A stretch of DNA of 64,000 bases, from contig JAMOQI010000082.1 in NCBI GenBank assembly GCA_027064095.1, positions 3,779-67,778 of the forward strand. The letters are read 5' to 3'. This document shows, one piece after another, positions 34,252 to 45,577 of this stretch. Both the position numbers and the translations under genes were made by a program. The first letter of the stretch is position 1, and each line of letters begins with the position of its first letter. The notes beneath the pieces were generated by a model. It made no database searches, was not told where the DNA came from, and saw only the letters and a list, made by a program, of their open reading frames with translations. Source of the DNA: Bacteroidales bacterium (lineage in GTDB: Bacteria > Bacteroidota > Bacteroidia > Bacteroidales > UBA1556).

Positions 34252-34686
34252 TTATTTTTTCATAGAAAGAATGCCAACGGCACAGCCTGGTTTACCATCT
34301 AGGAAAGAAATATATATTTTGTAAATAGCAGTTTTGCTACAATAAAATTCAAATGCTTTAAAATCTGTTTTGCTTTTTGTATGATATGTACTTGCAACTA
34401 ATTTATTACCATCAAAAAGTTGTAAAATAGCTTCCCCTTCATAATCAAGGGCACTACAAACATCAAATTTGTAAGTATTTCCTTTTGATAATAAAACAGA
34501 AAAACGAGCAACAGGCAAATCAGTAGGATTTGTAGCTGCAGCAAGTTTTGCACGGTATTGTTGTAAGAATACAGAGTTGCTTGATATATTATGGCAACAG
34601 TTTGTTACAAGAGTCTGATTGCATTGAGAGTAAGCAAAACTTTTAGCTATTAATACTAGAATAATAATGGTTAATATCTTTTTCAT
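34252..34686 (-). CDS. hypothetical small secreted Cys-rich protein
   Basis: Signal peptide MKKILTIIILVLIAKSFAYSQ and seven cysteines in the mature part. Confidence 0.5.
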   Translation of the reverse strand: MKKILTIIILVLIAKSFAYSQCNQTLVTNCCHNISSNSVFLQQYRAKLAAATNPTDLPVARFSVLLSKGNTYKFDVCSALDYEGEAILQLFDGNKLVASTYHTKSKTDFKAFEFYCSKTAIYKIYISFLDGKPGCAVGILSMKK

Positions 34687-34696
34687 AATGTCTTCT

Positions 34697-35608
34697 TTAT
34701 GCGTTTATGTTAATGAAGCTATTACGTATTTTCTCCACTTCTGCTGCAATCTTAGCAATCTGTTCGTCAGTTATATTTACTTTACTTTCATCATTCTGAA
34801 CAATAACAAGCATTCCATTTACTATTTTAGATTCAGGTTCTGAATCAGTAGTTACAATACTTATATCATCATAAATTGTTTTCAGATTTTGAAAATCACT
34901 TAACAACTGTGCAAATTGTGGGTCAGATTTATAATTATTAAATATAAGTATTAGATTATTAAGAATAAGTTTTTGTTCTCCAATCCTTTCTGCAATTTTT
35001 TCATTGCTTTTATCAGTATACACTTGAGTGGCCAAGTAAGTACTTTCAATCCATACACCGGTAACAATTAATGTACTGATATTTGTCCTGTTATTTTCCC
35101 TTAAATAATCATCCATATTATTAAAACTGGAAATGGAAGTGTAGATAAGAGAATCAAGGTTATTAGAATTTGACGCCAAACGTTTTAATAGATCAAAATC
35201 AAAGAATTGACCAACTTTTAGTTTGTTTGACAAATCATTAATTGCAGAAACTGTTGACATTACAGAGCTTGTCTTTTCATAAAGGTTTAAATAACCAAGG
35301 TCAGTACCTAAGATGCCAAGGTTTACAGCACTATTAAAATCACCAACAACATTATCGATATTATCGGTGGAACTGATATATTCCTTATTAAATGGTACAT
35401 TCTCGTCTAAGAGGAGTGAGGCAATTTCTATTGGTGAAGATACGTTGTCAATAAGTTCAGTCATGCTTTCTTTTGCTACACCAATTGATTCTGGAGCAAT
35501 AATAGAGTCAACTTGTGTAAAGTCTTCATTACTTTCATTAGTGGAGTTGGAACAAGAGTACGTAAGTCCACTCGCAAGTAGCATTAGAAGTAAATGTTTT
35601 AGTTTCAT
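34697..35608 (-). CDS. hypothetical lipoprotein
   Basis: The ATG at 35608 gives MKLKHLLLMLLASGLTYSC, a lipobox-like sequence. The rest is predicted to be helical. Confidence 0.55.
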   Translation of the reverse strand: MKLKHLLLMLLASGLTYSCSNSTNESNEDFTQVDSIIAPESIGVAKESMTELIDNVSSPIEIASLLLDENVPFNKEYISSTDNIDNVVGDFNSAVNLGILGTDLGYLNLYEKTSSVMSTVSAINDLSNKLKVGQFFDFDLLKRLASNSNNLDSLIYTSISSFNNMDDYLRENNRTNISTLIVTGVWIESTYLATQVYTDKSNEKIAERIGEQKLILNNLILIFNNYKSDPQFAQLLSDFQNLKTIYDDISIVTTDSEPESKIVNGMLVIVQNDESKVNITDEQIAKIAAEVEKIRNSFININA

Positions 35609-35660
35609 AAAGGTCAATTTCAATTCATGATATATTTATATGAGATGCATATAATAAATA

Positions 35661-38600
35661 TCAATGTTTATTAGAATTAAATTTAAATTGTAATAGTTTT
35701 CGCAATCCGTTAGTCCTAAGTATAAAGAACAGTAATATGTTAAACAGCCATATTATACTAATATTAAAATAAAAAGTTTCATAATATCTCCCTAAAAAAT
35801 GTTTTCTGGGTGCAAAAAGATGTGAGCGAATATCTAAAGGAGAATCAATATTAGGGTCTGTATAAATAGCATCAACATGTTGTATGAGATTGTTGTTGTA
35901 ATTTATTATTTTGTTTTTTTCATAGAATTGTGTCACAATATCACTAATAGCTTCATTATGATATTTGTTGCGTAAGGCGTAATATTTGTCTTTTTGTGTT
36001 GATAGATATTTATTTATTTTCATACTAAGTCTATTATGAGCTAAATAAAACTCATAATTATAAATACTGTCGAGTTTAACAATGAAAGTATTATAGCTAT
36101 TGAAATATGCAGTATTAATCTTTTTTTGATCTGTTGTTAGTAATAAATTATTTTGTAGTTCCGGATATATGGAAACTTGTTTTTTGTATTCATTTGATAG
36201 TAGTTCAATGTTATTTCTGAGACCTTCCTCATATTCCATATTACCAATGTTCTTTTGTACACTTTTTAGGTATTTTTTTAGTTCAGGAATATAATATACT
36301 TGATGAAAGTCAGCCTTACTTTCTTTTTTCTCCAGATTATAAAAATGTTTTTCAAATTTATTATTCACAAATTGATTTACAATTAGTGCTTCGTAAGCCC
36401 ATTTACTCACCATAGCCTCGGCTATAATGGGCACTTTATCTATTCTTGCAATATTTTTATTCATCTTGTCGAAACTAAACATTGCGCCTCCTAAAACCAT
36501 TTGAGGAATTATAAGGAGTGGAATAATGATATAAATGGTTACGACTTCATCAAAAGAGCTGGAAATAATCAATCCTAGCAGGTTGGAAAATACTGAGACG
36601 CTAAAAAAAGTCAGCCAGTAGCTAAATCCCATTCCACTTATTTCTAAAACAGAATTACCTATTAGAATAAATAGTAGAGATTGGACTGTGGAAATTAATA
36701 ATAGAATTGATATTTTGGCCAATAAATATGCAGTTTTGCTCAAATTAAGAAATGCTTCTCTTTTTAATATTTTTTGGTCTCTTATAATTTCTTCAGCGCT
36801 GATAGTTAAGCCAATAAATATTGCTACAATAATACTCATAAAAATATATTGAGGTATATTTTCATTAAGTCTAAAAATATATTTATCTCCGGTAGGGATA
36901 TATTTAATAATATAGCTTAAAATAAAAGCAAGTATAGGAGCTTCGAGAAATGCAATCAGAATGTATGTTTTATTACTTAGCTTAGACTTTAAATCTCTTT
37001 GGAAATAAATCCAAGTTTGTTTAATTTTAGAAGGGATATCTAGATTTATTTCTGGAGCGGAGTTCTCTTCGGAGATTTTTCTATTAGTTGTTTGTTCAAG
37101 GTAAAGATTATTCCAGTCTTTAGGTTCTTTTTTTCGTTTGGAATTGTAGTTTCCATATTCATCTACTACTTCTCGGTGAATAATATTAAATAACTGTTCG
37201 GCATTTACATTTCCACAACTAGCACATTGAGCTTGCTCGTAGGAAGCTTGACCATCTTTTTGTTTAAAATAACTAATTATTTCAACAGGGTTGTCATACT
37301 GAATCATATATCCACCTTCGTCAAGGAGAATTACCTTATCAAAAATTTTATAAATATCTGATGATGGTTGATGAATAACAACAAATATCAATTTCCCTTT
37401 ATGTGATAGTTTACGTAGTAGATCCATCACATTTTCTGAATCTCTTGATGATAATCCACTTGTTGGCTCATCAACGAATAGGATAGAGGGCTCGCGAATT
37501 AATTCTAAAGCAATATTCAATCTTTTTCGCTGGCCGCCACTTATAAGTTTATTCAATACACTACCTACCTTTAGGTCTTTAATGTCGAATAAATCTAATG
37601 ACATTAGGGTGTTGTTAACAAGCTCGATAAGTTCTTCTTTGGATTTGTTGTTATAGCAAAATTTAGTGTTAAAATATAGATTTTCAAATACTGTTAAGTT
37701 TTCAATAAGTAAATCGTCTTGAGGTATAAATCCTATTGCACCTTCTAGTTTTTCTTTTTCTTTATGTAGGTCTATATTGTTTATTCTAACAGAACCTGTG
37801 TTTGGAGTATAACTTCCGGACAATACACTTAGAAGAGTTGATTTCCCGGAACCTGATGCTCCCATAATGGCAACAAGGGAGTTTTGTTGCTCATATATGT
37901 TCATTGGGTGCAATCCAATTTGAGAATCATTAAATTTGTAGCTTATATTTTCTGCTACAAAGCTTATTTTTGTTCCTTTATTATCTTTTATAAAACTCTC
38001 AAAAATATTTGAAAAGTAAATAGGCTTACTAACCGGAGTTTTTATTGTACTTCCAGGATTGAAAACAAAGCTTTGGTTCTTTGATAAAGTTAATCCGTTG
38101 AGTGTTAATTCTTGATTTCCAGAATATCTAACTAAATATAAATTGGTGCTGGAAATATGAAGAAAAATAAGCTGACCATCTAGTCTGTTATATTCTAAAT
38201 AATTATCTTGTTTTACTTTTTTATTGGAAATAACAATGAAACTGGAAACAGGAAGGATGTCTTTATCAGTGGAGAAAACAAGTTTTTTTAGATCGTCAAA
38301 TTCTTTTAAGTCGATATTAAAAACTTCTGCAATAGTATGTATTATCTCTATCCTTTGGAGGCTTTCTTGTTCTGAAATCATTTCAAGAAGACGGATAGTG
38401 GCAATTACTTTTTGTTTATGATCGAGGGTTTTGTTGATTCTTTTACATATTTTTAAAATACGTACCGAATCGGTCATGGATGTAAGCTTAGAGTTTTTTC
38501 GCTTTAAAGCTTTTAATTTCGACTCTTCTATTTGTTCATCAAAAAGTTTTAAGTAAGTATCAACATCGTTGAGGTTTAGCTCGTTGTGTAGGAAATTTTG

Positions 38601-38693
38601 TACATAAAGGCGCTCTTGTTCAAATTGCTCACTATCTTGATGGGCAATAATAGCAAATAATTGCATTAGCGCTTTTAGTATTTCTTCACTCAT
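35661..38693 (-). CDS. ABCG-type (NBD-TMD) ABC transporter with an N-terminal extension of about 270 aa and a C-terminal extension of about 230 aa
   Basis: Walker A GASGSGKST, signature ISGGQRKR, Walker B ILFVDEPTSGL, H-loop VIHQPS, then an ABC-2-type TMD. The N-terminus may be TerB-like helical. The C-terminus is a long helical region plus a final TM. Confidence 0.85.
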   Translation of the reverse strand: MSEEILKALMQLFAIIAHQDSEQFEQERLYVQNFLHNELNLNDVDTYLKLFDEQIEESKLKALKRKNSKLTSMTDSVRILKICKRINKTLDHKQKVIATIRLLEMISEQESLQRIEIIHTIAEVFNIDLKEFDDLKKLVFSTDKDILPVSSFIVISNKKVKQDNYLEYNRLDGQLIFLHISSTNLYLVRYSGNQELTLNGLTLSKNQSFVFNPGSTIKTPVSKPIYFSNIFESFIKDNKGTKISFVAENISYKFNDSQIGLHPMNIYEQQNSLVAIMGASGSGKSTLLSVLSGSYTPNTGSVRINNIDLHKEKEKLEGAIGFIPQDDLLIENLTVFENLYFNTKFCYNNKSKEELIELVNNTLMSLDLFDIKDLKVGSVLNKLISGGQRKRLNIALELIREPSILFVDEPTSGLSSRDSENVMDLLRKLSHKGKLIFVVIHQPSSDIYKIFDKVILLDEGGYMIQYDNPVEIISYFKQKDGQASYEQAQCASCGNVNAEQLFNIIHREVVDEYGNYNSKRKKEPKDWNNLYLEQTTNRKISEENSAPEINLDIPSKIKQTWIYFQRDLKSKLSNKTYILIAFLEAPILAFILSYIIKYIPTGDKYIFRLNENIPQYIFMSIIVAIFIGLTISAEEIIRDQKILKREAFLNLSKTAYLLAKISILLLISTVQSLLFILIGNSVLEISGMGFSYWLTFFSVSVFSNLLGLIISSSFDEVVTIYIIIPLLIIPQMVLGGAMFSFDKMNKNIARIDKVPIIAEAMVSKWAYEALIVNQFVNNKFEKHFYNLEKKESKADFHQVYYIPELKKYLKSVQKNIGNMEYEEGLRNNIELLSNEYKKQVSIYPELQNNLLLTTDQKKINTAYFNSYNTFIVKLDSIYNYEFYLAHNRLSMKINKYLSTQKDKYYALRNKYHNEAISDIVTQFYEKNKIINYNNNLIQHVDAIYTDPNIDSPLDIRSHLFAPRKHFLGRYYETFYFNISIIWLFNILLFFILRTNGLRKLLQFKFNSNKH

Positions 38694-38893: not shown

Positions 38894-39268
38894 TTATAAA
38901 CAAATTAATTCGAATGGAATATCAACAAGTTCAGAATATTCTTCACCGGCTTCTTCCATATCTTCATCATCTTCGGTATAGAACCATTTAATAGTACAAT
39001 TATGGCCATTTTCTACCATTTCTTCTATTATCATAAGAATGTCAAGCAGAAGTTTTGATGAAGCGGTATTAAAATAGTTCATTTTAATATGTAGTTCTGT
39101 AAGTTCGTTAGGAGACTTTGCATATTCTTTAAGCCAATCCAAAATAGGCTCATAAAAAAGAGATGCGTCTTCTGGTAATGAACGTCCTGATATTTCAAAG
39201 ATATTATTCTCAGGATCAAACACAATCATAGGTGTATCTTCTTTTGCTTCTATTTTTATAGTCTTCAT
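38894..39268 (-). CDS. SiaC-family (DUF1987) regulatory phosphoprotein
   Basis: 124 aa. TPMIVFDPENNIFEISGRSLPEDASLFYEPILDWLKEY and YFNTASSKLLLDIL are typical of DUF1987. Confidence 0.8.
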   Translation of the reverse strand: MKTIKIEAKEDTPMIVFDPENNIFEISGRSLPEDASLFYEPILDWLKEYAKSPNELTELHIKMNYFNTASSKLLLDILMIIEEMVENGHNCTIKWFYTEDDEDMEEAGEEYSELVDIPFELICL

Positions 39269-39274
39269 ATCTGA

Positions 39275-39856
39275 TTATTTTAGATTACGTGAAACTTGAG
39301 TTGTAAGAATAAAGAAATAAGCGTCATCACCAATTTCTTTAAAAGTATAACCTAATTTGTTACCCGATTTTCGAGCTATATCAATTAGGCCTAAACCGGC
39401 ACCTCCGCGGTCAGATATTTTGCCAATCTTCATCTGTTCTTTATGTAATTGCTTAAGTCCGGCTTTATCTAATTTATTTATTTTTATTAATAGCTCTTCC
39501 ATTATTTCTTTATCATCAGAATGAACAACATTACCAGCGATGATAAAATAGTCGGTAAGGGATTTGGCTATAAGAAAAGTACCTATACCTTTTAAGTCGT
39601 CTTTAATACCTTTAAGGTTTTGGGCATGTTTACTAATATTCTGAAGGCTTTCAACGATAATGTGAAATACTTTCATTTGCAATGCGTTAGGCTCGGCGTC
39701 TTTGGCCATATTCTCTTCAGTTAGAGCTGTAAATGCCTTTGTGATTTGATGAGTTACTTCTCCCTCGTAGATTAGATTTATTTGATTTATCTTCATATTA
39801 CGATAAAAATCAAAAACATAATCGTGAAAGATTTCATTCATGAGTTTTTTCTCCAT
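39275..39856 (-). CDS. SiaB-family small protein kinase (HATPase-like, anti-sigma-factor-type fold)
   Basis: N-box-like VESLQNISKHA and G-box GGAGLGLIDIARKSG in 193 aa, encoded between the PP2C gene and the DUF1987 gene. Confidence 0.75.
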   Translation of the reverse strand: MEKKLMNEIFHDYVFDFYRNMKINQINLIYEGEVTHQITKAFTALTEENMAKDAEPNALQMKVFHIIVESLQNISKHAQNLKGIKDDLKGIGTFLIAKSLTDYFIIAGNVVHSDDKEIMEELLIKINKLDKAGLKQLHKEQMKIGKISDRGGAGLGLIDIARKSGNKLGYTFKEIGDDAYFFILTTQVSRNLK

Positions 39857-39877: not shown

Positions 39878-42487
39878 TTATATTTCTATTCCTATTAACA
39901 ATATATCATCTATCTGACGATAATTTCCTTGCCATGTATTTAATCTATCGGCAAATATAGTATGCATTTCTTTTAAATTAACATTAGGATTATCATTAAT
40001 TATCTTTCTTACTTGTTTCTCTTGGAATTTCTCAAAACTATTTTCTTTAAATTGGTCTGCTAATCCGTCAGAGAAGATAAATATCCTATCATTCTTTTGT
40101 AAGTCTATTTCATGAAGAATGAAATCTTTAGCTTTCTTTTTAGGAGTTATACCACCAATTGCACGCCTATTACCTTTTATTTGAATAAGCTCGTTTCCTC
40201 TTTGAATATATAATGGTCGGTGTGCTCCGGCAAAGTATAGTTTCTTCATGTCTTTACTAAACTGGCAAAATGCGATATCCATACCATCTCTGGTATTTCT
40301 GCTTCCATTTTCTTGTTTAAGGGTACGTTTAACTTCTTTGTCGAAAATGCTAAGTATTTCTGCAGCTTTTGCTTTAGGATGAGAATTTACTATGTCATTT
40401 AAAAGGAAGTATCCAATAAAGCTTAATAATGCTCCAGGCACTCCATGGCCGGTACAATCTACCGCTGCCAGGTAAATGCCATTGTCATTTTGTTTAAACC
40501 AAGGGAAGTCGCCACTTACTACATCTCGAGCTTTGTAGAAAATAAATGAATTTCTGAAATACTTATTTAAGATATCATCTTTAGGAAGTATTGCAGTTTG
40601 AATCCTTTGAGCATAATTGATACTTTCTGTTAATTTAAGGTTTTTGTCTATAATTTCCTTTTCAATAGCTTTAATATCAGATATATCATGAGCAACAATC
40701 AATATAGATTCCAGTTCTTTTTCTTCGTTAAATTCAGGGATGCTACTAACTTTAAGATAGTGAGTTTTAGAATCTAATAAAATTTCGAATTCGGTTTCTT
40801 GTTTTTCTAATACTTTTATGGAAGAATTAATTCTTTCTTTAATAAATGATCTAAATTCATCAGAAATATTAATTTCATTAATGTTTAAACCTTGTAATTC
40901 ATCTGGTTTATAAGGTAAATATTCTTCTACTTTTGGGTTTGCATAATGGAATTTTCCTTTTCTGCCAAAACGCATTATTAAATCAGGACTATTCTCTGAT
41001 AATGCTTGCATCTGACTCTTAAGACGTCTGTCTTTTTCAGCAATCATTTGCAATGTGATATCTCTGGTGTTGAATATCAAACCTTCAATTGCTGGATTGT
41101 CAAGCATATTTTTACCAGTTGTTTCCATCCAAATTTCACTACCATTGCTTGTATAATGCTTAAATTTATAGTTTACCTTTTCATTAGGGTATTTATGTAG
41201 TTTGATAAAGTTTTCTTTCACAAGAGTGATAAACTCATTTGGAATTCTATCAGTTGCCCGCATCCCAATAACTTCTTCAGGAATATAACCAAGAATTTTT
41301 TCTGCAGAAGGACTTTCATATTTGATTTTTCCTTTTGCATCAAATATTGTAATAATTTCTGAAGCATTTTCTAATAAAGAATGTAGTCGAGTTTTTGCTG
41401 ACTCCACTTCTTGAATTTGTTTTTCTAATTCATTATTACTTCTTTCAAGCTCTTCATGAGTCATTCGCATTTCTTCTGCATTTTGCTGCAACTCTTCTTC
41501 GTTTTCTTTTAATTCTTCTGTAAGAATTTGAGCCTCATGAAGCAATTTTTCAGTGTTAAGATTCATTTGTACGCTGAATAATACTTGTCCAATTATAGGT
41601 CCAAGTTCTTCCATTAATAAAATTACCTTTTGAGGTATATAATCTTGGATATCAGCTATTTCTATTATGCCTTGCACTTTTGTTTCGCTTATTAACGGCA
41701 TAATAAACAAACTACCGGGTTTTTTGTCGGTGATAATTCCGGAAGTAATACTAACAAATTCTTCCGGTATTTCTGTTCTGTAAATACTTAAGCGTTCGTA
41801 GGCAGCTTGTCCTATTAATCCTTCACCAACTTTAAAAGACTGATGAATAAATTTCTTACGTTTATATGCATATGCTGCTGTTAAATTAAAATTTTCATTT
41901 TCTTCATTATAAATATAGAATCTACCTTGTGTGATATCACAATAATCAAGGATTTTCTTTATAACATTATAGGATAAATCGTTTAGGTTGTTGTATTTTC
42001 TTAATTCTTTTGATATTAATTCTTTACCCTCATTAATCCAAATATTTGTTGACTCTTTTTCTCTGTTTTTTACCAAATTATTACGCATCATTATCAATGA
42101 GCGTGTGAGTAGATCGTCTTTATTCAGATTTCCAAAATTACTATTCTCAAAATCACCTTCCCCTATGCTTTTAGCAAATAAAGCATTGTTTGTTATGATA
42201 TTATTTTTTTGTTCAAGTTTATATTCATAATGATTTTTCTTCATTAAAAATACTGTTCCAAAATAATATGCTATCCCTCCAAATATTATAGGGATAAACC
42301 AAGTAATAATAATTGATGGATAGTTCTCATGAATATATATAAATTTATTTGTACCCTCAGGTACATTACCAGTACTACTATTGACAAGAAATAAAATATA
42401 TGTTGAGAAAAGTAAACCAATTATTACTCCACCAGCGAGGAGTTGTTTTAAGAGTATGGTTTCGTTTTTTGAATATTTGTTTTTCAT
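39878..42487 (-). CDS. membrane receptor-type PP2C (SpoIIE-family) phosphatase, SiaA-like: 2 TM, HAMP-like linker, GAF, coiled coil, 2 PAS, PP2C
   Basis: TM helices at aa ~20-35 and ~57-82; GAF with GEGLIGQAAY..ITSGI; Glu/Gln-rich coiled coil at aa ~311-370; PAS-like IIFDAKGKIKYESPSAEKILGY and LIMRFGRKGKFHYANP; PP2C motifs VSGDF, AAVDCTGHGVPGA, FSDGLADQ and DDILLIGIEI. Confidence 0.85.
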   Translation of the reverse strand: MKNKYSKNETILLKQLLAGGVIIGLLFSTYILFLVNSSTGNVPEGTNKFIYIHENYPSIIITWFIPIIFGGIAYYFGTVFLMKKNHYEYKLEQKNNIITNNALFAKSIGEGDFENSNFGNLNKDDLLTRSLIMMRNNLVKNREKESTNIWINEGKELISKELRKYNNLNDLSYNVIKKILDYCDITQGRFYIYNEENENFNLTAAYAYKRKKFIHQSFKVGEGLIGQAAYERLSIYRTEIPEEFVSITSGIITDKKPGSLFIMPLISETKVQGIIEIADIQDYIPQKVILLMEELGPIIGQVLFSVQMNLNTEKLLHEAQILTEELKENEEELQQNAEEMRMTHEELERSNNELEKQIQEVESAKTRLHSLLENASEIITIFDAKGKIKYESPSAEKILGYIPEEVIGMRATDRIPNEFITLVKENFIKLHKYPNEKVNYKFKHYTSNGSEIWMETTGKNMLDNPAIEGLIFNTRDITLQMIAEKDRRLKSQMQALSENSPDLIMRFGRKGKFHYANPKVEEYLPYKPDELQGLNINEINISDEFRSFIKERINSSIKVLEKQETEFEILLDSKTHYLKVSSIPEFNEEKELESILIVAHDISDIKAIEKEIIDKNLKLTESINYAQRIQTAILPKDDILNKYFRNSFIFYKARDVVSGDFPWFKQNDNGIYLAAVDCTGHGVPGALLSFIGYFLLNDIVNSHPKAKAAEILSIFDKEVKRTLKQENGSRNTRDGMDIAFCQFSKDMKKLYFAGAHRPLYIQRGNELIQIKGNRRAIGGITPKKKAKDFILHEIDLQKNDRIFIFSDGLADQFKENSFEKFQEKQVRKIINDNPNVNLKEMHTIFADRLNTWQGNYRQIDDILLIGIEI

Positions 42488-42498
42488 ATCTTAATTTT

Positions 42499-43251
42499 TC
42501 AAGATTTTAAGATTTTAGAATAGTCATTAGCAAAGTTTTGTAATAGTTCAAAACAATTATTATTATTTGATTTCATATCTGCAAATTCCATAACAATTGT
42601 TGTTTTATCGTTTACCACTATAGGGATAATATAAATATTTTTAGGAAGAATATCTCCACTACCCGAAGTTATTCTTAAATAATTATCAGGGATATTTTTA
42701 ATAATTGTAGCTTTTTTATCCAAAGCTACTTGTCCATGAAGTCCATCTCCTAATTGAAATGAGGGAGGCTTAGTATCAGAGTACAGAGCATAATTTACCC
42801 AATTCTCAAACTCATTTTCATCGTTTAGTTTGAAACTTACAGCTAAATCAAATTCTAAGTTTCTACATATTGTGGAGATACATTTTTCAACAAACTCATC
42901 ACTTTCAAAATCTATCTTTTTGTCAGAAAATAATGATTTAGTATTTAATGAATATTCTTTAATATCCTTAGTTTTATTTTCAGTTTTTAGTTCAGCGTTA
43001 TTAAGGTTATCATTTTTATCAGCTTTTGTAGCTGTTGTTGTAAGTATAAGTCTCCAGTTTATAAAAAAGCTTCCTGTTGATAATATAATAATGGACCATA
43101 CAAATAAATGAAATTCACCGCTATATTTTTCAATTTTATAACTGGAAAAATAATTATCCATTCTAAAATATGCCATTATTACTAAAGCAATAATTGCAAT
43201 TAGAATGACAGTATTTGTAATTCTCAATATTTGTAAGTTTTTGTATTTCAT
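42499..43251 (-). CDS. 2-TM membrane protein with a cytoplasmic GAF-like domain (paralogous to the GAF of the PP2C protein)
   Basis: GDGLHGQVALDKKATIIKNIPDNYLRITSGSG parallels GEGLIGQAAYERLSIYRTEIPEEFVSITSGI in the next gene. ATGA overlap with cheB. Confidence 0.65.
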   Translation of the reverse strand: MKYKNLQILRITNTVILIAIIALVIMAYFRMDNYFSSYKIEKYSGEFHLFVWSIIILSTGSFFINWRLILTTTATKADKNDNLNNAELKTENKTKDIKEYSLNTKSLFSDKKIDFESDEFVEKCISTICRNLEFDLAVSFKLNDENEFENWVNYALYSDTKPPSFQLGDGLHGQVALDKKATIIKNIPDNYLRITSGSGDILPKNIYIIPIVVNDKTTIVMEFADMKSNNNNCFELLQNFANDYSKILKS

Positions 43252-43823
43252 TTTCTTGGTAGTTTAAGGATATAGTTTGTTATTTGTTCTGGTGAAAAAA
43301 TATGGTCTATTTTAGTAAGCTGCTTTGCAGCCTGTGGCATTGTTCGAGCTTGAGATAAAGCGGGGTCTTGAATAATTGTTGTTCCTCCATTAATATTAAC
43401 AGACTTCATTCCTAAAGCGCCATCTTTATTAGCTCCTGAAAGAAGTATACCAAGCATTTTACTTCTAAAAATACGTGCTGCCGTATTAAAAGTTATGTCT
43501 ATTGCCGGTCTAGAGTGGTTTACATTGTCATAGGTTGAAAGACTAAAATGATTTCCCAATTCAACCATAAGATGATAATTTGCCGGAGCAAGATAAATAC
43601 TGCCACTACTTATGTGCATTTTATCATATGGTTCAACAATTGGTAAATTACTTTTTAATTCTAAGGCTTCAATAAAGCCACTTCTAACATGCTTAAGCCT
43701 ATGTAAACATAAAATAATTGGTAAAGGAAAATCTTTTGGAATTTGTGATATCAATTTGATAACCACTCTGAAACTTCCTGCAGATCCACCAATTACAATA
43801 TATTTAATGTTTTTTTCTATCAT
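43248..43823 (-). CDS. cheB: protein-glutamate methylesterase catalytic domain only (CheB without a receiver domain)
   Basis: The catalytic-triad contexts are conserved: IGGSAGS (Ser), ILCLHR (His) and LSGANKDGALGM (Asp). The 191-aa protein has no REC domain. Confidence 0.85.
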   Translation of the reverse strand: MIEKNIKYIVIGGSAGSFRVVIKLISQIPKDFPLPIILCLHRLKHVRSGFIEALELKSNLPIVEPYDKMHISSGSIYLAPANYHLMVELGNHFSLSTYDNVNHSRPAIDITFNTAARIFRSKMLGILLSGANKDGALGMKSVNINGGTTIIQDPALSQARTMPQAAKQLTKIDHIFSPEQITNYILKLPRK

Positions 43824-44644
43824 TAAAAATGTCTTTTATAAAATTTCTCTTCTTCGTTATAAACTTTAAACTTTTTGTCGATGTCAAAAATGGCAATATT
43901 TTCTTTAATACCTGTAATAAGAAAACCTCCTCCTTCCATTTTTTTATGGAATAGATTAATTATTTTTTGTTCTCTTACATGTGTATAACTAATAAATTTG
44001 TTTCGGAAAAGGATAAGATTTGGATTAAAAGGAAGGTTAATATCTTCCATGCTATTCTTGTAAATAAAAGTGTTTTTAATTAATTCTTTCTTGATAAAGA
44101 TACTTTGATCTATTCTTTCAATATAATTATTGAGATCGTCTGATTCGTCAATTCGTTTAATATTATTTTCAGAATTTGAAATTATTGTTGAGCTAATTAT
44201 ACCTTTTCGGCAAAGTTCCAAATTGCTCTGACTCATATCGCTGATGATAATTTTACTCTTGTTTATTAATTTATATTTATGCAAATAAATCAAGAGGCTA
44301 AAGTATTCACTTCCCTGACTAACTTCCGGAATCCATATTCTCAATGGCTTTTTTACTAGTATTTTATCTAAGATGTCCTTTTTTAGCAATCGCCACATAG
44401 CAGGGTCTCTAAATAAGCTTATATGTTCACAATAAATACATGATAATAATTTGTCGAATAGTCTTTTGTCATTTTTTATAGCGTTGATAAATGAGCTGAC
44501 TGTAGCATATTTGCTATATCTCATTACAGCAGATATATTTCTATTCATGGCTCCCATAGAATACTGACTTAAGTCAATATTATGGGTGCTTTTTATAGCA
44601 GAAATAATGTCTTTATAATTTATAATGCTTAATGTCGTGTCCAT
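43823..44644 (-). CDS. CheR-like methyltransferase paralogue with a degenerate SAM-binding motif
   Basis: Retains SLFRDPAMW but has IWIPEVSQGSEYFSL where IWSAGCSTGEE is expected, and LILFRNKFISY where CRNVLIYF is expected. The ATG at 44644 is preferred over the TTG at 44689. TAATG overlap with cheB. Confidence 0.7.
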   Translation of the reverse strand: MDTTLSIINYKDIISAIKSTHNIDLSQYSMGAMNRNISAVMRYSKYATVSSFINAIKNDKRLFDKLLSCIYCEHISLFRDPAMWRLLKKDILDKILVKKPLRIWIPEVSQGSEYFSLLIYLHKYKLINKSKIIISDMSQSNLELCRKGIISSTIISNSENNIKRIDESDDLNNYIERIDQSIFIKKELIKNTFIYKNSMEDINLPFNPNLILFRNKFISYTHVREQKIINLFHKKMEGGGFLITGIKENIAIFDIDKKFKVYNEEEKFYKRHF

Positions 44645-44740
44645 ATGCAAATAAGTCAAAAGATGACCTAAATTAAGAATAGCCGTCAAAAATGAAATTC
44701 CTTGTACGCAATAATAGGGGTAAAAGGTTTCATGAAAATG

Positions 44741-45577
44741 TTATTGTTTTAAAAACAATTTGCCTCTTTTCTTAAATTTAGATAGATTTGGGCCTAAAAT
44801 GCTTTCGTGAACACCTAAGAGGAGGTAAGAATCCGGATGTAAATTATTGTAAAAACTTTCTATAATTCTGGATTGTAACTTTTGATTATGATAAATGAGA
44901 ACATTTCTGCATGATATAAGATCTAAATTGGCAAAGTCTAAATAAGGTTTTTTAACTAAGTCATTTTGAAAGAAAATAATCTTTTTCTTAAGAAAATCAT
45001 GCATTGTAATTGTATCTCTGGATTTGTCAATTTTGAAATACTTTTTATAATCGATATTTGTATCTTCGTCATAATTTAAAGGGTTATTTCTAATAACCTT
45101 ATTAAAATTGCTGATATAATCTAAATTGTTACGGTATCGATATTCTCCTTTTTTTGCAATATTTAGTACTTTGGTATTAATATCACTGGCAAAAATTCTA
45201 ACTTTGTCTTCCAACCCTAATACATGCAATAATATAGCCATTGAGTATGCCTCTTGGCCAGTAGAACATCCGGAAATCCAGATGTTTATTGTTTTTCTTT
45301 TTCGAAGAATTGTAAAAGTATTAGTTCTTAAGAATAGCCACACTTCAGGATCTCGAAATAATTCTGTTGTATTGACGGTAATCTCTTCCATCATATTATC
45401 AGCGAAACTTTTACTTGTTGTAATAGATTGTTTTAATTGTTCAAAACTTAAATTCTGATTTATCATCAATCTATTAATACGCCTTAGTAAAGACCCTTCT
45501 GCATAATCTGTAAAATCAAATGAAGTATATTGCTTAATAGTAAATTTTATATCTTCAAATTCATCTTTTGAGAGCAT
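44741..45577 (-). CDS. cheR: protein-glutamate O-methyltransferase CheR
   Basis: TELFRDPEVW, IWISGCSTGQEAYSMAILL, IFASDIN and SCRNVLIYHN, so all signature motifs are intact. Confidence 0.9.
   Translation of the reverse strand: MLSKDEFEDIKFTIKQYTSFDFTDYAEGSLLRRINRLMINQNLSFEQLKQSITTSKSFADNMMEEITVNTTELFRDPEVWLFLRTNTFTILRKRKTINIWISGCSTGQEAYSMAILLHVLGLEDKVRIFASDINTKVLNIAKKGEYRYRNNLDYISNFNKVIRNNPLNYDEDTNIDYKKYFKIDKSRDTITMHDFLKKKIIFFQNDLVKKPYLDFANLDLISCRNVLIYHNQKLQSRIIESFYNNLHPDSYLLLGVHESILGPNLSKFKKRGKLFLKQ

Follow-up and report, generated by a model that had tools for sequence, protein, structure and literature searches.

In the chemoreceptors Tar and Tsr of Escherichia coli, which are MCPs (methyl-accepting chemotaxis proteins), the methylation helices carry Glu/Gln pairs seven residues apart, each placed just before a core residue. 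A further type of receptor, the methyl-accepting coiled coil (MAC), goes back to Wuichet and Zhulin 2010, as cited in PMC6943060 and in bioRxiv 10.1101/2022.05.07.491037. The passages on MAC proteins in these two papers define MAC1 as having CheB and CheR domains incorporated and MAC2 as associated with separate CheB and CheR genes, and the corresponding passage of the preprint (bioRxiv 10.1101/2022.05.07.491037) describes MAC proteins as joining receptor and kinase functions. Here we analyse an operon within a 64,000-nucleotide stretch of a Bacteroidales genome (contig JAMOQI010000082.1, positions 3,779 to 67,778 of the forward strand; this whole stretch is called the window and its own numbering is used below). 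The operon encodes CheR, CheB and a sensor phosphatase of 869 amino acids (aa), in which a Glu-rich heptad helix at aa 311-370 lies between a GAF domain and the PAS and PP2C domains. The results point to this coil as the best-supported candidate substrate of the CheR and CheB of the operon, that is, as a methyl-accepting coiled coil of the MAC type, an assignment made from sequence that we consider fairly probable.

We compared the locus with MAC2 by the features that the two secondary sources describe. By these features the likeness is threefold: the window sensor has its coil of Glu-pair heptads inside the sensor protein, stand-alone cheR and cheB genes lie in the sensor's operon, and the system is present in genomes that lack MCP, CheA and CheW (in the sensor's own genome, which is 86% complete, MCPsignal and CheW give no match). 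The difference lies in the output, as Pfam finds only GAF, PAS and SpoIIE/PP2C domains in the sensor, with neither HisKA nor HATPase and no MCPsignal domain (PF00015), and what follows is PP2C together with a switch of the SiaB/SiaC type and a conserved ABC transporter. Reading the helix as a methyl acceptor re-derives the 2010 MAC hypothesis, in its MAC2 class, and is not new. What is new relative to the MAC description published in these sources is the SiaA-like PP2C partner switch as output, with no kinase.

With regard to MAC1, open reading frames (ORFs) of the same phylum that contain a fused CheR carry the coil EELKSNNEEIQSTNEELQSANEELTTSKEEMQSMNEELQTVNHELQ some 200 residues beyond their CheR domain, which bears out a likeness to CheB-CheR fusion kinases that a first-pass annotation of the window had pointed out. 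In both cases the heptad unit is x-E-E-[LM]-x-x-x; the fusions have 4-8 repeats of it, followed by PAS. On the other hand, the MAC1 enzymes are fused to the substrate protein, each pair in their (N-E-E-L-Q-S-T)n coil is followed by Ser/Thr, no GAF domain precedes this coil, their CheR domains form a separate clade, and their match to the motif profile is weak (E ~1e-4), compatible with homology as well as with convergence. A phmmer search with a 71-aa stretch of the sensor against 1.84 billion cluster representatives (E < 1e-3) gave 132 proteins, none of them with a fused CheB or CheR, and thus direct homology of the motif to the MAC1 coils is not demonstrated.

With MCPs the sensor has the CheR and CheB enzyme families in common, as well as Glu pairs exactly seven residues apart, each just before a core residue. 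Moreover, 94 of 115 orthologues show the C-terminal half of the MCP consensus, EE-x-x-A-T, at aa 338-343. The sensor differs from MCPs in having no MCPsignal domain and no CheA/CheW output, and its helix is probably a parallel two-helix coil, as opposed to the antiparallel four-helix bundle of an MCP.

The output side resembles the SiaABCD system of Pseudomonas aeruginosa, which comprises the PP2C phosphatase SiaA, the kinase SiaB, SiaC and the diguanylate cyclase SiaD. The PP2C domain of the sensor is similar to SiaA (the NCBIfam SiaA model NF038263 gives a partial match of 163 bits, far under its equivalog cut-off of 700), and immediately downstream come the genes for a DUF6272 protein and a member of the SiaC family. 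In contrast to SiaABCD, the window operon has no diguanylate cyclase, the next gene encoding an ABC transporter and not a GGDEF protein, and it combines a GAF-coil-PAS input with a CheR/CheB module; to our knowledge SiaABCD has neither. The S-helix of Anantharaman, Balaji and Aravind (2006) is reported to span about 40 residues, to connect a sensor with an output and to bear an E-R-T signature at its centre. Compared by eye, the position of the window helix between GAF and PAS fits, and the E-R-T triplet is absent from aa 311-370. A literature search on SiaC with CheR, on orphan CheR in Bacteroidetes and on CheB-CheR fusions found nothing relevant.

Minus-strand translation gives aa 311-370 of the sensor as NTEKLLHEAQILTEELKENEEELQQNAEEMRMTHEELERSNNELEKQIQEVESAKTRLHS, and both the sequence and the position of this segment agree exactly with those on which the first-pass annotation had based its proposal. 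That annotation had also described a heptad-like helix between the GAF sensor and the PAS/PP2C output, a description that the Pfam boundaries (GAF_2 at aa 188-302, PAS at aa 367-477, PAS_9, and SpoIIE/PP2C at aa 668-868), the heptad period and the predicted structure all corroborate. Glu makes up 17 of the 60 residues of the segment, compared to 8.2% of the remaining protein (binomial P = 4e-6). Five to six x-E-E-[LM]-x-x-x heptads span aa 322-361, and [EQ][EQ][LMIV] triplets start at aa 324, 331, 338, 345 and 359, with an exact period of seven residues. A hydrophobic core position recurs every seven residues (A319, L326, L333, M340, L347, L354, V361, L368) and the second core position is polar (N329, N336, T343, S350, Q357). 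The candidate methyl-accepting Glu pairs are 324/325, 331/332, 338/339 and 345/346, with the variants N-E at 352/353 and Q-E at 359/360.

AlphaFold2, run with 38 orthologues, predicts aa 286-372 as one unbroken helix. Searches of the helix segment against Pfam and NCBIfam gave only spurious coiled-coil matches below cut-off (Fzo_mitofusin, PilJ, Lebercilin, LegC2/C7). In a six-frame scan of the 2.13-Mb genome, the sensor is the only ORF of at least 80 aa with at least three consecutive [EQ][EQ][LMIV]xxxx heptads. Judging from these scans there is no competing candidate substrate, the sensor having the sole EE-heptad run in the genome and the other operon proteins showing neither the motif nor the MCP consensus. 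The small GAF protein with two transmembrane (TM) segments encoded in the operon was considered as a possible carrier of the motif and rejected, as no motif match was found in orthologous loci.

We measured conservation as column entropy in a MAFFT alignment of 115 full-length orthologues, which are 41-88% identical overall. The results show that the coil is the least variable region of the sensor, with a mean column entropy of 0.62, followed by the PAS-to-PP2C linker at aa 606-665 (0.69), GAF (1.05), PP2C (1.06), PAS 1 (1.14) and PAS 2 (1.43). Poor conservation among orthologues that keep cheR and cheB, which the first-pass annotation had considered, is thus the reverse of what is seen. The polar residues E325, E328, N329, E331, Q335, E338, E339, T343, E346, N351 and E362 are invariant in all 115 orthologues and are presumably exposed at the surface. 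By its entropy and these invariant polar residues the helix looks like a recognition element and not a spacer.

The motif comprises about 48 residues built of x-E-E-[LM]-x-x-x heptads, and 311 motif instances give the family consensus T-x-x-LL-x-E-[AS]-Q-x-x-x-EE[LM]-[KR]-x-[QN]-EEE[LM]-R-QN-[AM]-EE[LM]-x-A-T-[QH]-EE[LM]. Within these instances, aa 324, 330 and 332 alternate exclusively between E and Q, aa 325 does likewise in multi-repeat relatives, and aa 318 and 345 are either E or D; such position-specific changes would fit a dispensable charge at those sites. In nearly all of the 132 phmmer matches the motif comes immediately after a GAF domain of the same type, and the best 80 loci in the genome collection are all from Bacteroidota (Bacteroidales, Cytophagales and their relatives). 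Judged by these alignments and matches, the motif is a Bacteroidota-specific, sharply conserved Glu-heptad helix that directly follows a particular GAF domain.

Several further features of the family were noted. Three metagenomic proteins, P0136 (1989 aa), P0131 (2122 aa) and P0188 (2405 aa), have up to nine modules of Glu-heptad motif plus PAS after a single GAF domain, an architecture of the kind found in Cytophagales genome loci. Loci L014, L015 and L018 (genomes G303, G027 and G211), which span about 3 kb each, encode proteins of about 690-860 aa with a Ser/Thr/Ala-rich coil variant, TTEELAASNEELSATNEELATTNEELQEAQ, that is very similar to the MCP consensus; CheR gives one match in each of the three genomes. 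The helix between PAS 2 and PP2C (aa 606-665, window 40493-40672, minus strand) contains an invariant S622-I623-x-Y625-x-x-R628-I629-Q630. Pfam family PF28175.1 is precomputed for many orthologues of the sensor (P0001).

The distribution of CheR and of chemoreceptors bears directly on the question of the substrate. The sensor's own genome has only two CheR genes, both within this operon, and in three relatives with 100% complete genomes (G111, G311 and G359) MCPsignal gives no match and the only bona fide CheR sits in the orthologous operon. With MCPsignal and CheW unmatched and CheR confined to the operon, a substrate other than an MCP is required. Directly upstream of the sensor, cheR and cheB are present in 46 of 49 orthologous PP2C-type loci; one of the three exceptions is at a contig end and the other two are in genomes with a CheR-CheR pair on another contig. 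Orthologous loci with protein identities of about 45% repeat the entire arrangement, the TerB-ABC transporter and two additional genes among it, and the operon is also found in another family (G311), there with a dCache-HAMP input to the sensor and a single CheR. CheR scores above the Pfam cut-off in each of 26 motif-positive genomes that were tested; six of them came from the phylum sample, ten were reached via loci and ten are further genera of the class sample. In six genera of the class sample (G417, G432, G576, G650, G663, G674) CheR adjoins another GAF-motif protein. Across the class Bacteroidia CheR is common and MCPs are rare, and cultured relatives with the same operon include Labilibacter sediminis, Geofilum rubicundum, Chryseolinea lacunae and Ohtaekwangia kribbensis.

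In a maximum-likelihood tree built from 58 CheR sequences, the CheRs of Che clusters (support 100/100) and those of fusion proteins (98/89) stand apart from a clade of first CheRs of the operon, which includes the window CheR1 (100/99). The CheRs adjacent to CheB form a group that includes the window CheR2, on a branch of 2.07 changes per column. Some genomes, namely G243 and those of several Marinilabiliaceae, have a full Che cluster of the classical type (MCP, Hpt, CheA, two CheW, CheR, a HATPase protein, CheD, and a receiver-bearing CheB) that ends directly upstream, and the operon still keeps its own two CheRs and CheB. That these CheR paralogues are separate and co-inherited suggests a substrate other than MCPs.

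In these loci (L032 at G243:C1:2368500-2388400, L047, L049, L069, L099 and L110-L112) the Che cluster abuts a 625-aa GAF-motif-PAS protein and the CheR-CheR'-CheB-GAF-PP2C operon, so that three CheRs and two CheBs stand within about 12 kb. The juxtaposition may hint at the origin of the module.

The first-pass annotation had proposed that the helix, and not an MCP, is what CheR and CheB of the operon modify. The part of this proposal that holds is that a non-MCP substrate is needed and that the helix is the best candidate for it; the argument it drew from a QQ pair, as a sign of deamidation, does not. All 115 orthologues have Q at aa 335, without a single E, and at aa 334 most have R. The QQ pair is ruled out as a deamidation site by the invariance of Q335, which is unlike the E/Q alternation seen at MCP deamidation sites.

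A number of observations weigh against methylation of the coil. The central Glu pairs are invariably E, with Q encoded in none of the 115 orthologues. The strict pattern [ASTG][ASTG]-x-x-[EQ][EQ]-x-x-[ASTG][ASTG] has no match in any operon protein, a caveat that the first-pass annotation had itself entered, and the window sensor reads EEMRMT where most orthologues read EEMRAT. In the AlphaFold2 monomer the predicted local distance difference test (pLDDT) drops to 40-54 over aa 340-375, a low confidence which is nevertheless expected for a coiled coil modelled without its partner. Many of the phmmer relatives have 2-9 copies of the motif, each preceding a PAS domain, and this arrangement would fit a purely structural role as a PAS linker equally well. 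The linker at aa 606-665 is nearly as conserved as the coil, which is thus not unique among the signalling helices in its strong conservation. As to gene association, neither cheR nor cheB is present within 10 kb of 29 of the 31 GAF-motif genes of the non-PP2C kind. The presence of CheR in 26 of 26 motif-positive genomes is an association and not a statistic, and it overstates the link, because CheR is present in about half of the phylum's genomes anyway (210 of 401 in the phylum sample) and related genomes are not independent. Finally, methyl acceptance is, in the passage of the preprint that deals with it, only predicted for every MAC protein (bioRxiv 10.1101/2022.05.07.491037).

Part of this evidence would suit a helix that does nothing but transmit signals from GAF to PAS, as a lineage-specific relative of the S-helix type, with CheR and CheB modifying the sensor at a different place or acting on other proteins, for instance the small 2-TM GAF protein or the SiaC/SiaB pair. 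The recurrence of the motif before each PAS in the multi-repeat proteins, the similar conservation of the other linker, the lack of the strict MCP consensus and the distance of most non-PP2C motif genes from cheR and cheB all agree with such a role, and a polar core such as N329 and N336 is generally typical of dynamic signalling helices. A mere transmission helix, however, would not need invariant Glu at solvent-facing positions. None of the other operon proteins has Glu pairs that are repeated or set within a consensus, the motif is never present in the small GAF protein, CheR accompanies the motif in every genome tested, and CheR-fused proteins bear an analogous coil. The distance between genes is weak evidence as well, since MCP genes too are mostly scattered away from cheR and cheB. 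Taken together, we regard the pure transmission helix as rather unlikely.

Conservation of surface residues would also suit any specific protein-protein interface, and the coil could then serve to dock or tether CheR, CheB or the SiaB-like kinase, comparable in role to the C-terminal pentapeptide of some MCPs, with the modified residues located elsewhere; the divergent second CheR could be a non-catalytic binder at such a site. Known tethers of CheR and CheB are short, flexible C-terminal peptides and not coiled coils (PMC7390727), and the repetition of EE every seven residues suggests several equivalent sites as opposed to one docking surface. Docking alone is in our view improbable. A last possibility is a chance coiled coil of low complexity, rich in Glu and without a specific role, as E, K, Q and L are often abundant in coiled coils. 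This would be very hard to reconcile with a segment that is the least variable region in 115 orthologues, that has relatives in 132 cluster representatives, nearly all behind the same GAF, and that is the only such run in the genome; conservation, GAF-linked relatives and genome-wide uniqueness rule it out as a serious candidate.

Returning to the coil as a methyl-accepting element, we infer from the anatomy, conservation and gene associations observed here the following enzymology and direction of signalling. The sensor would dimerise via the long helix at aa 286-372, whose coil core, alternating Leu/Met with polar Asn, Thr, Ser and Gln, is expected to be of marginal stability. The Glu ladder occupies the two positions before each core Leu, and CheR of the operon would methylate at least one ladder Glu (candidates 325, 332, 339 and 346), while the receiver-less CheB would strip the methyl groups. 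Neutralisation of charge may then alter the packing or register of the helix and bias the passage of TM/GAF input to PAS-PAS-PP2C. The SiaA-like PP2C would act on the SiaC-family protein, opposed by the DUF6272 (SiaB-like) kinase, with the conserved TerB-ABC transporter encoded downstream as the probable output of the switch. In this manner the phosphatase switch could gain an adaptation or memory of the kind that methylation gives chemoreceptors.

The genes of the operon are listed with the features of the sensor in Table 1. Their order is CheR, a divergent CheR, receiver-less CheB, the small 2-TM GAF protein, the sensor, DUF6272 and SiaC, followed by the ABC transporter. The second CheR may be non-catalytic or re-purposed. 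G311-type operons have a single, intact CheR. In many Bacteroidales operons an extra GAF-motif protein of 680-940 aa lies between both CheR genes (loci L036-L046, L050, L057, L068, L072, L073, L078, L080 and L106); the window lacks it and its CheR genes stand in tandem. On the 3' side of SiaC, the ABC transporter and two unannotated genes (about 306 and 144 aa) together occupy window positions 34252-38693 on the minus strand and are kept in 42 of 49 loci. Orthologues of the transporter (1010-1024 aa; L003, L005, L033) have an N-terminal TerB domain. The transporter and the two unannotated downstream genes are candidates for the output of the switch.

Table 1 Position in the window of the sensor, its helix and the genes of the operon.
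Feature	Coordinates	Strand	Basis and remarks
Sensor gene, 869 aa: 2 TM segments, linker, GAF, coil, PAS, PAS, PP2C	39878..42487	-	Translation and Pfam
Glu-rich heptad helix segment, aa 311-370	41378..41557	-	Translation; Glu enrichment; sole heptad run in the genome
Conserved motif core, aa 312-362, consensus T-x-x-LL-x-E-[AS]-Q-x-x-x-EE[LM]-[KR]-x-[QN]-EEE[LM]-[RQ]-QN-[AM]-EE[LM]-x-[AM]-T-[HQ]-EE[LM]	41402..41554	-	Column statistics of 115 orthologues and 311 motif instances; profile A1
Single predicted helix, aa 286-372, from last GAF helix to first PAS strand	41372..41632	-	AlphaFold2 and DSSP
GAF domain, about aa 166-304	41576..41992	-	Pfam; phmmer of GAF against 132 representative matches
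CheR methyltransferase, 278 aa, first operon gene, intact CheR_N and CheR domains	44741..45577	-	Pfam 2e-35
Divergent CheR paralogue, 288 aa, directly upstream of cheB	43823..44689	-	Pfam 9.8e-18; branch 2.07
CheB methylesterase/deamidase domain, 191 aa, without receiver	43248..43823	-	Pfam 1.8e-45, aa 9-185
Small 2-TM GAF protein, 250 aa, no coil motif	42499..43251	-	Pfam; kept between cheB and sensor in orthologous loci
DUF6272 protein, 193 aa, SiaB-like kinase partner	39275..39856	-	Pfam 7e-37
SiaC-family (DUF1987) phosphoprotein, 124 aa, presumed PP2C substrate	38894..39268	-	Pfam 2e-42
ABC transporter, 1010 aa, downstream, possible switch output	35661..38693	-	Pfam; in 42/49 loci

CheR and CheB are widespread in Bacteroidia, which are mostly free of chemoreceptors, and their role there has been a question since the MAC proposal of 2010. 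The operon offers a compact and testable case, with one intact CheR, one CheB, a single motif protein in the genome and a SiaC phosphoprotein as read-out, and it couples the old MAC hypothesis to an undescribed phosphatase output. We put forward tentatively, as a wider view that is about as open to doubt as to belief and if anything a little more so, that the GAF-linked helix marks a second large Bacteroidota family of methyl-accepting receptors, in which dedicated CheR and CheB would adapt non-kinase outputs, here a PP2C/SiaB/SiaC switch controlling a TerB-ABC exporter, and whose relatives stack up to nine modules. If the methylation proves true, receptor methylation as a form of memory would no longer be confined to kinase-coupled chemotaxis but would also serve Ser/Thr phosphatase partner switches.

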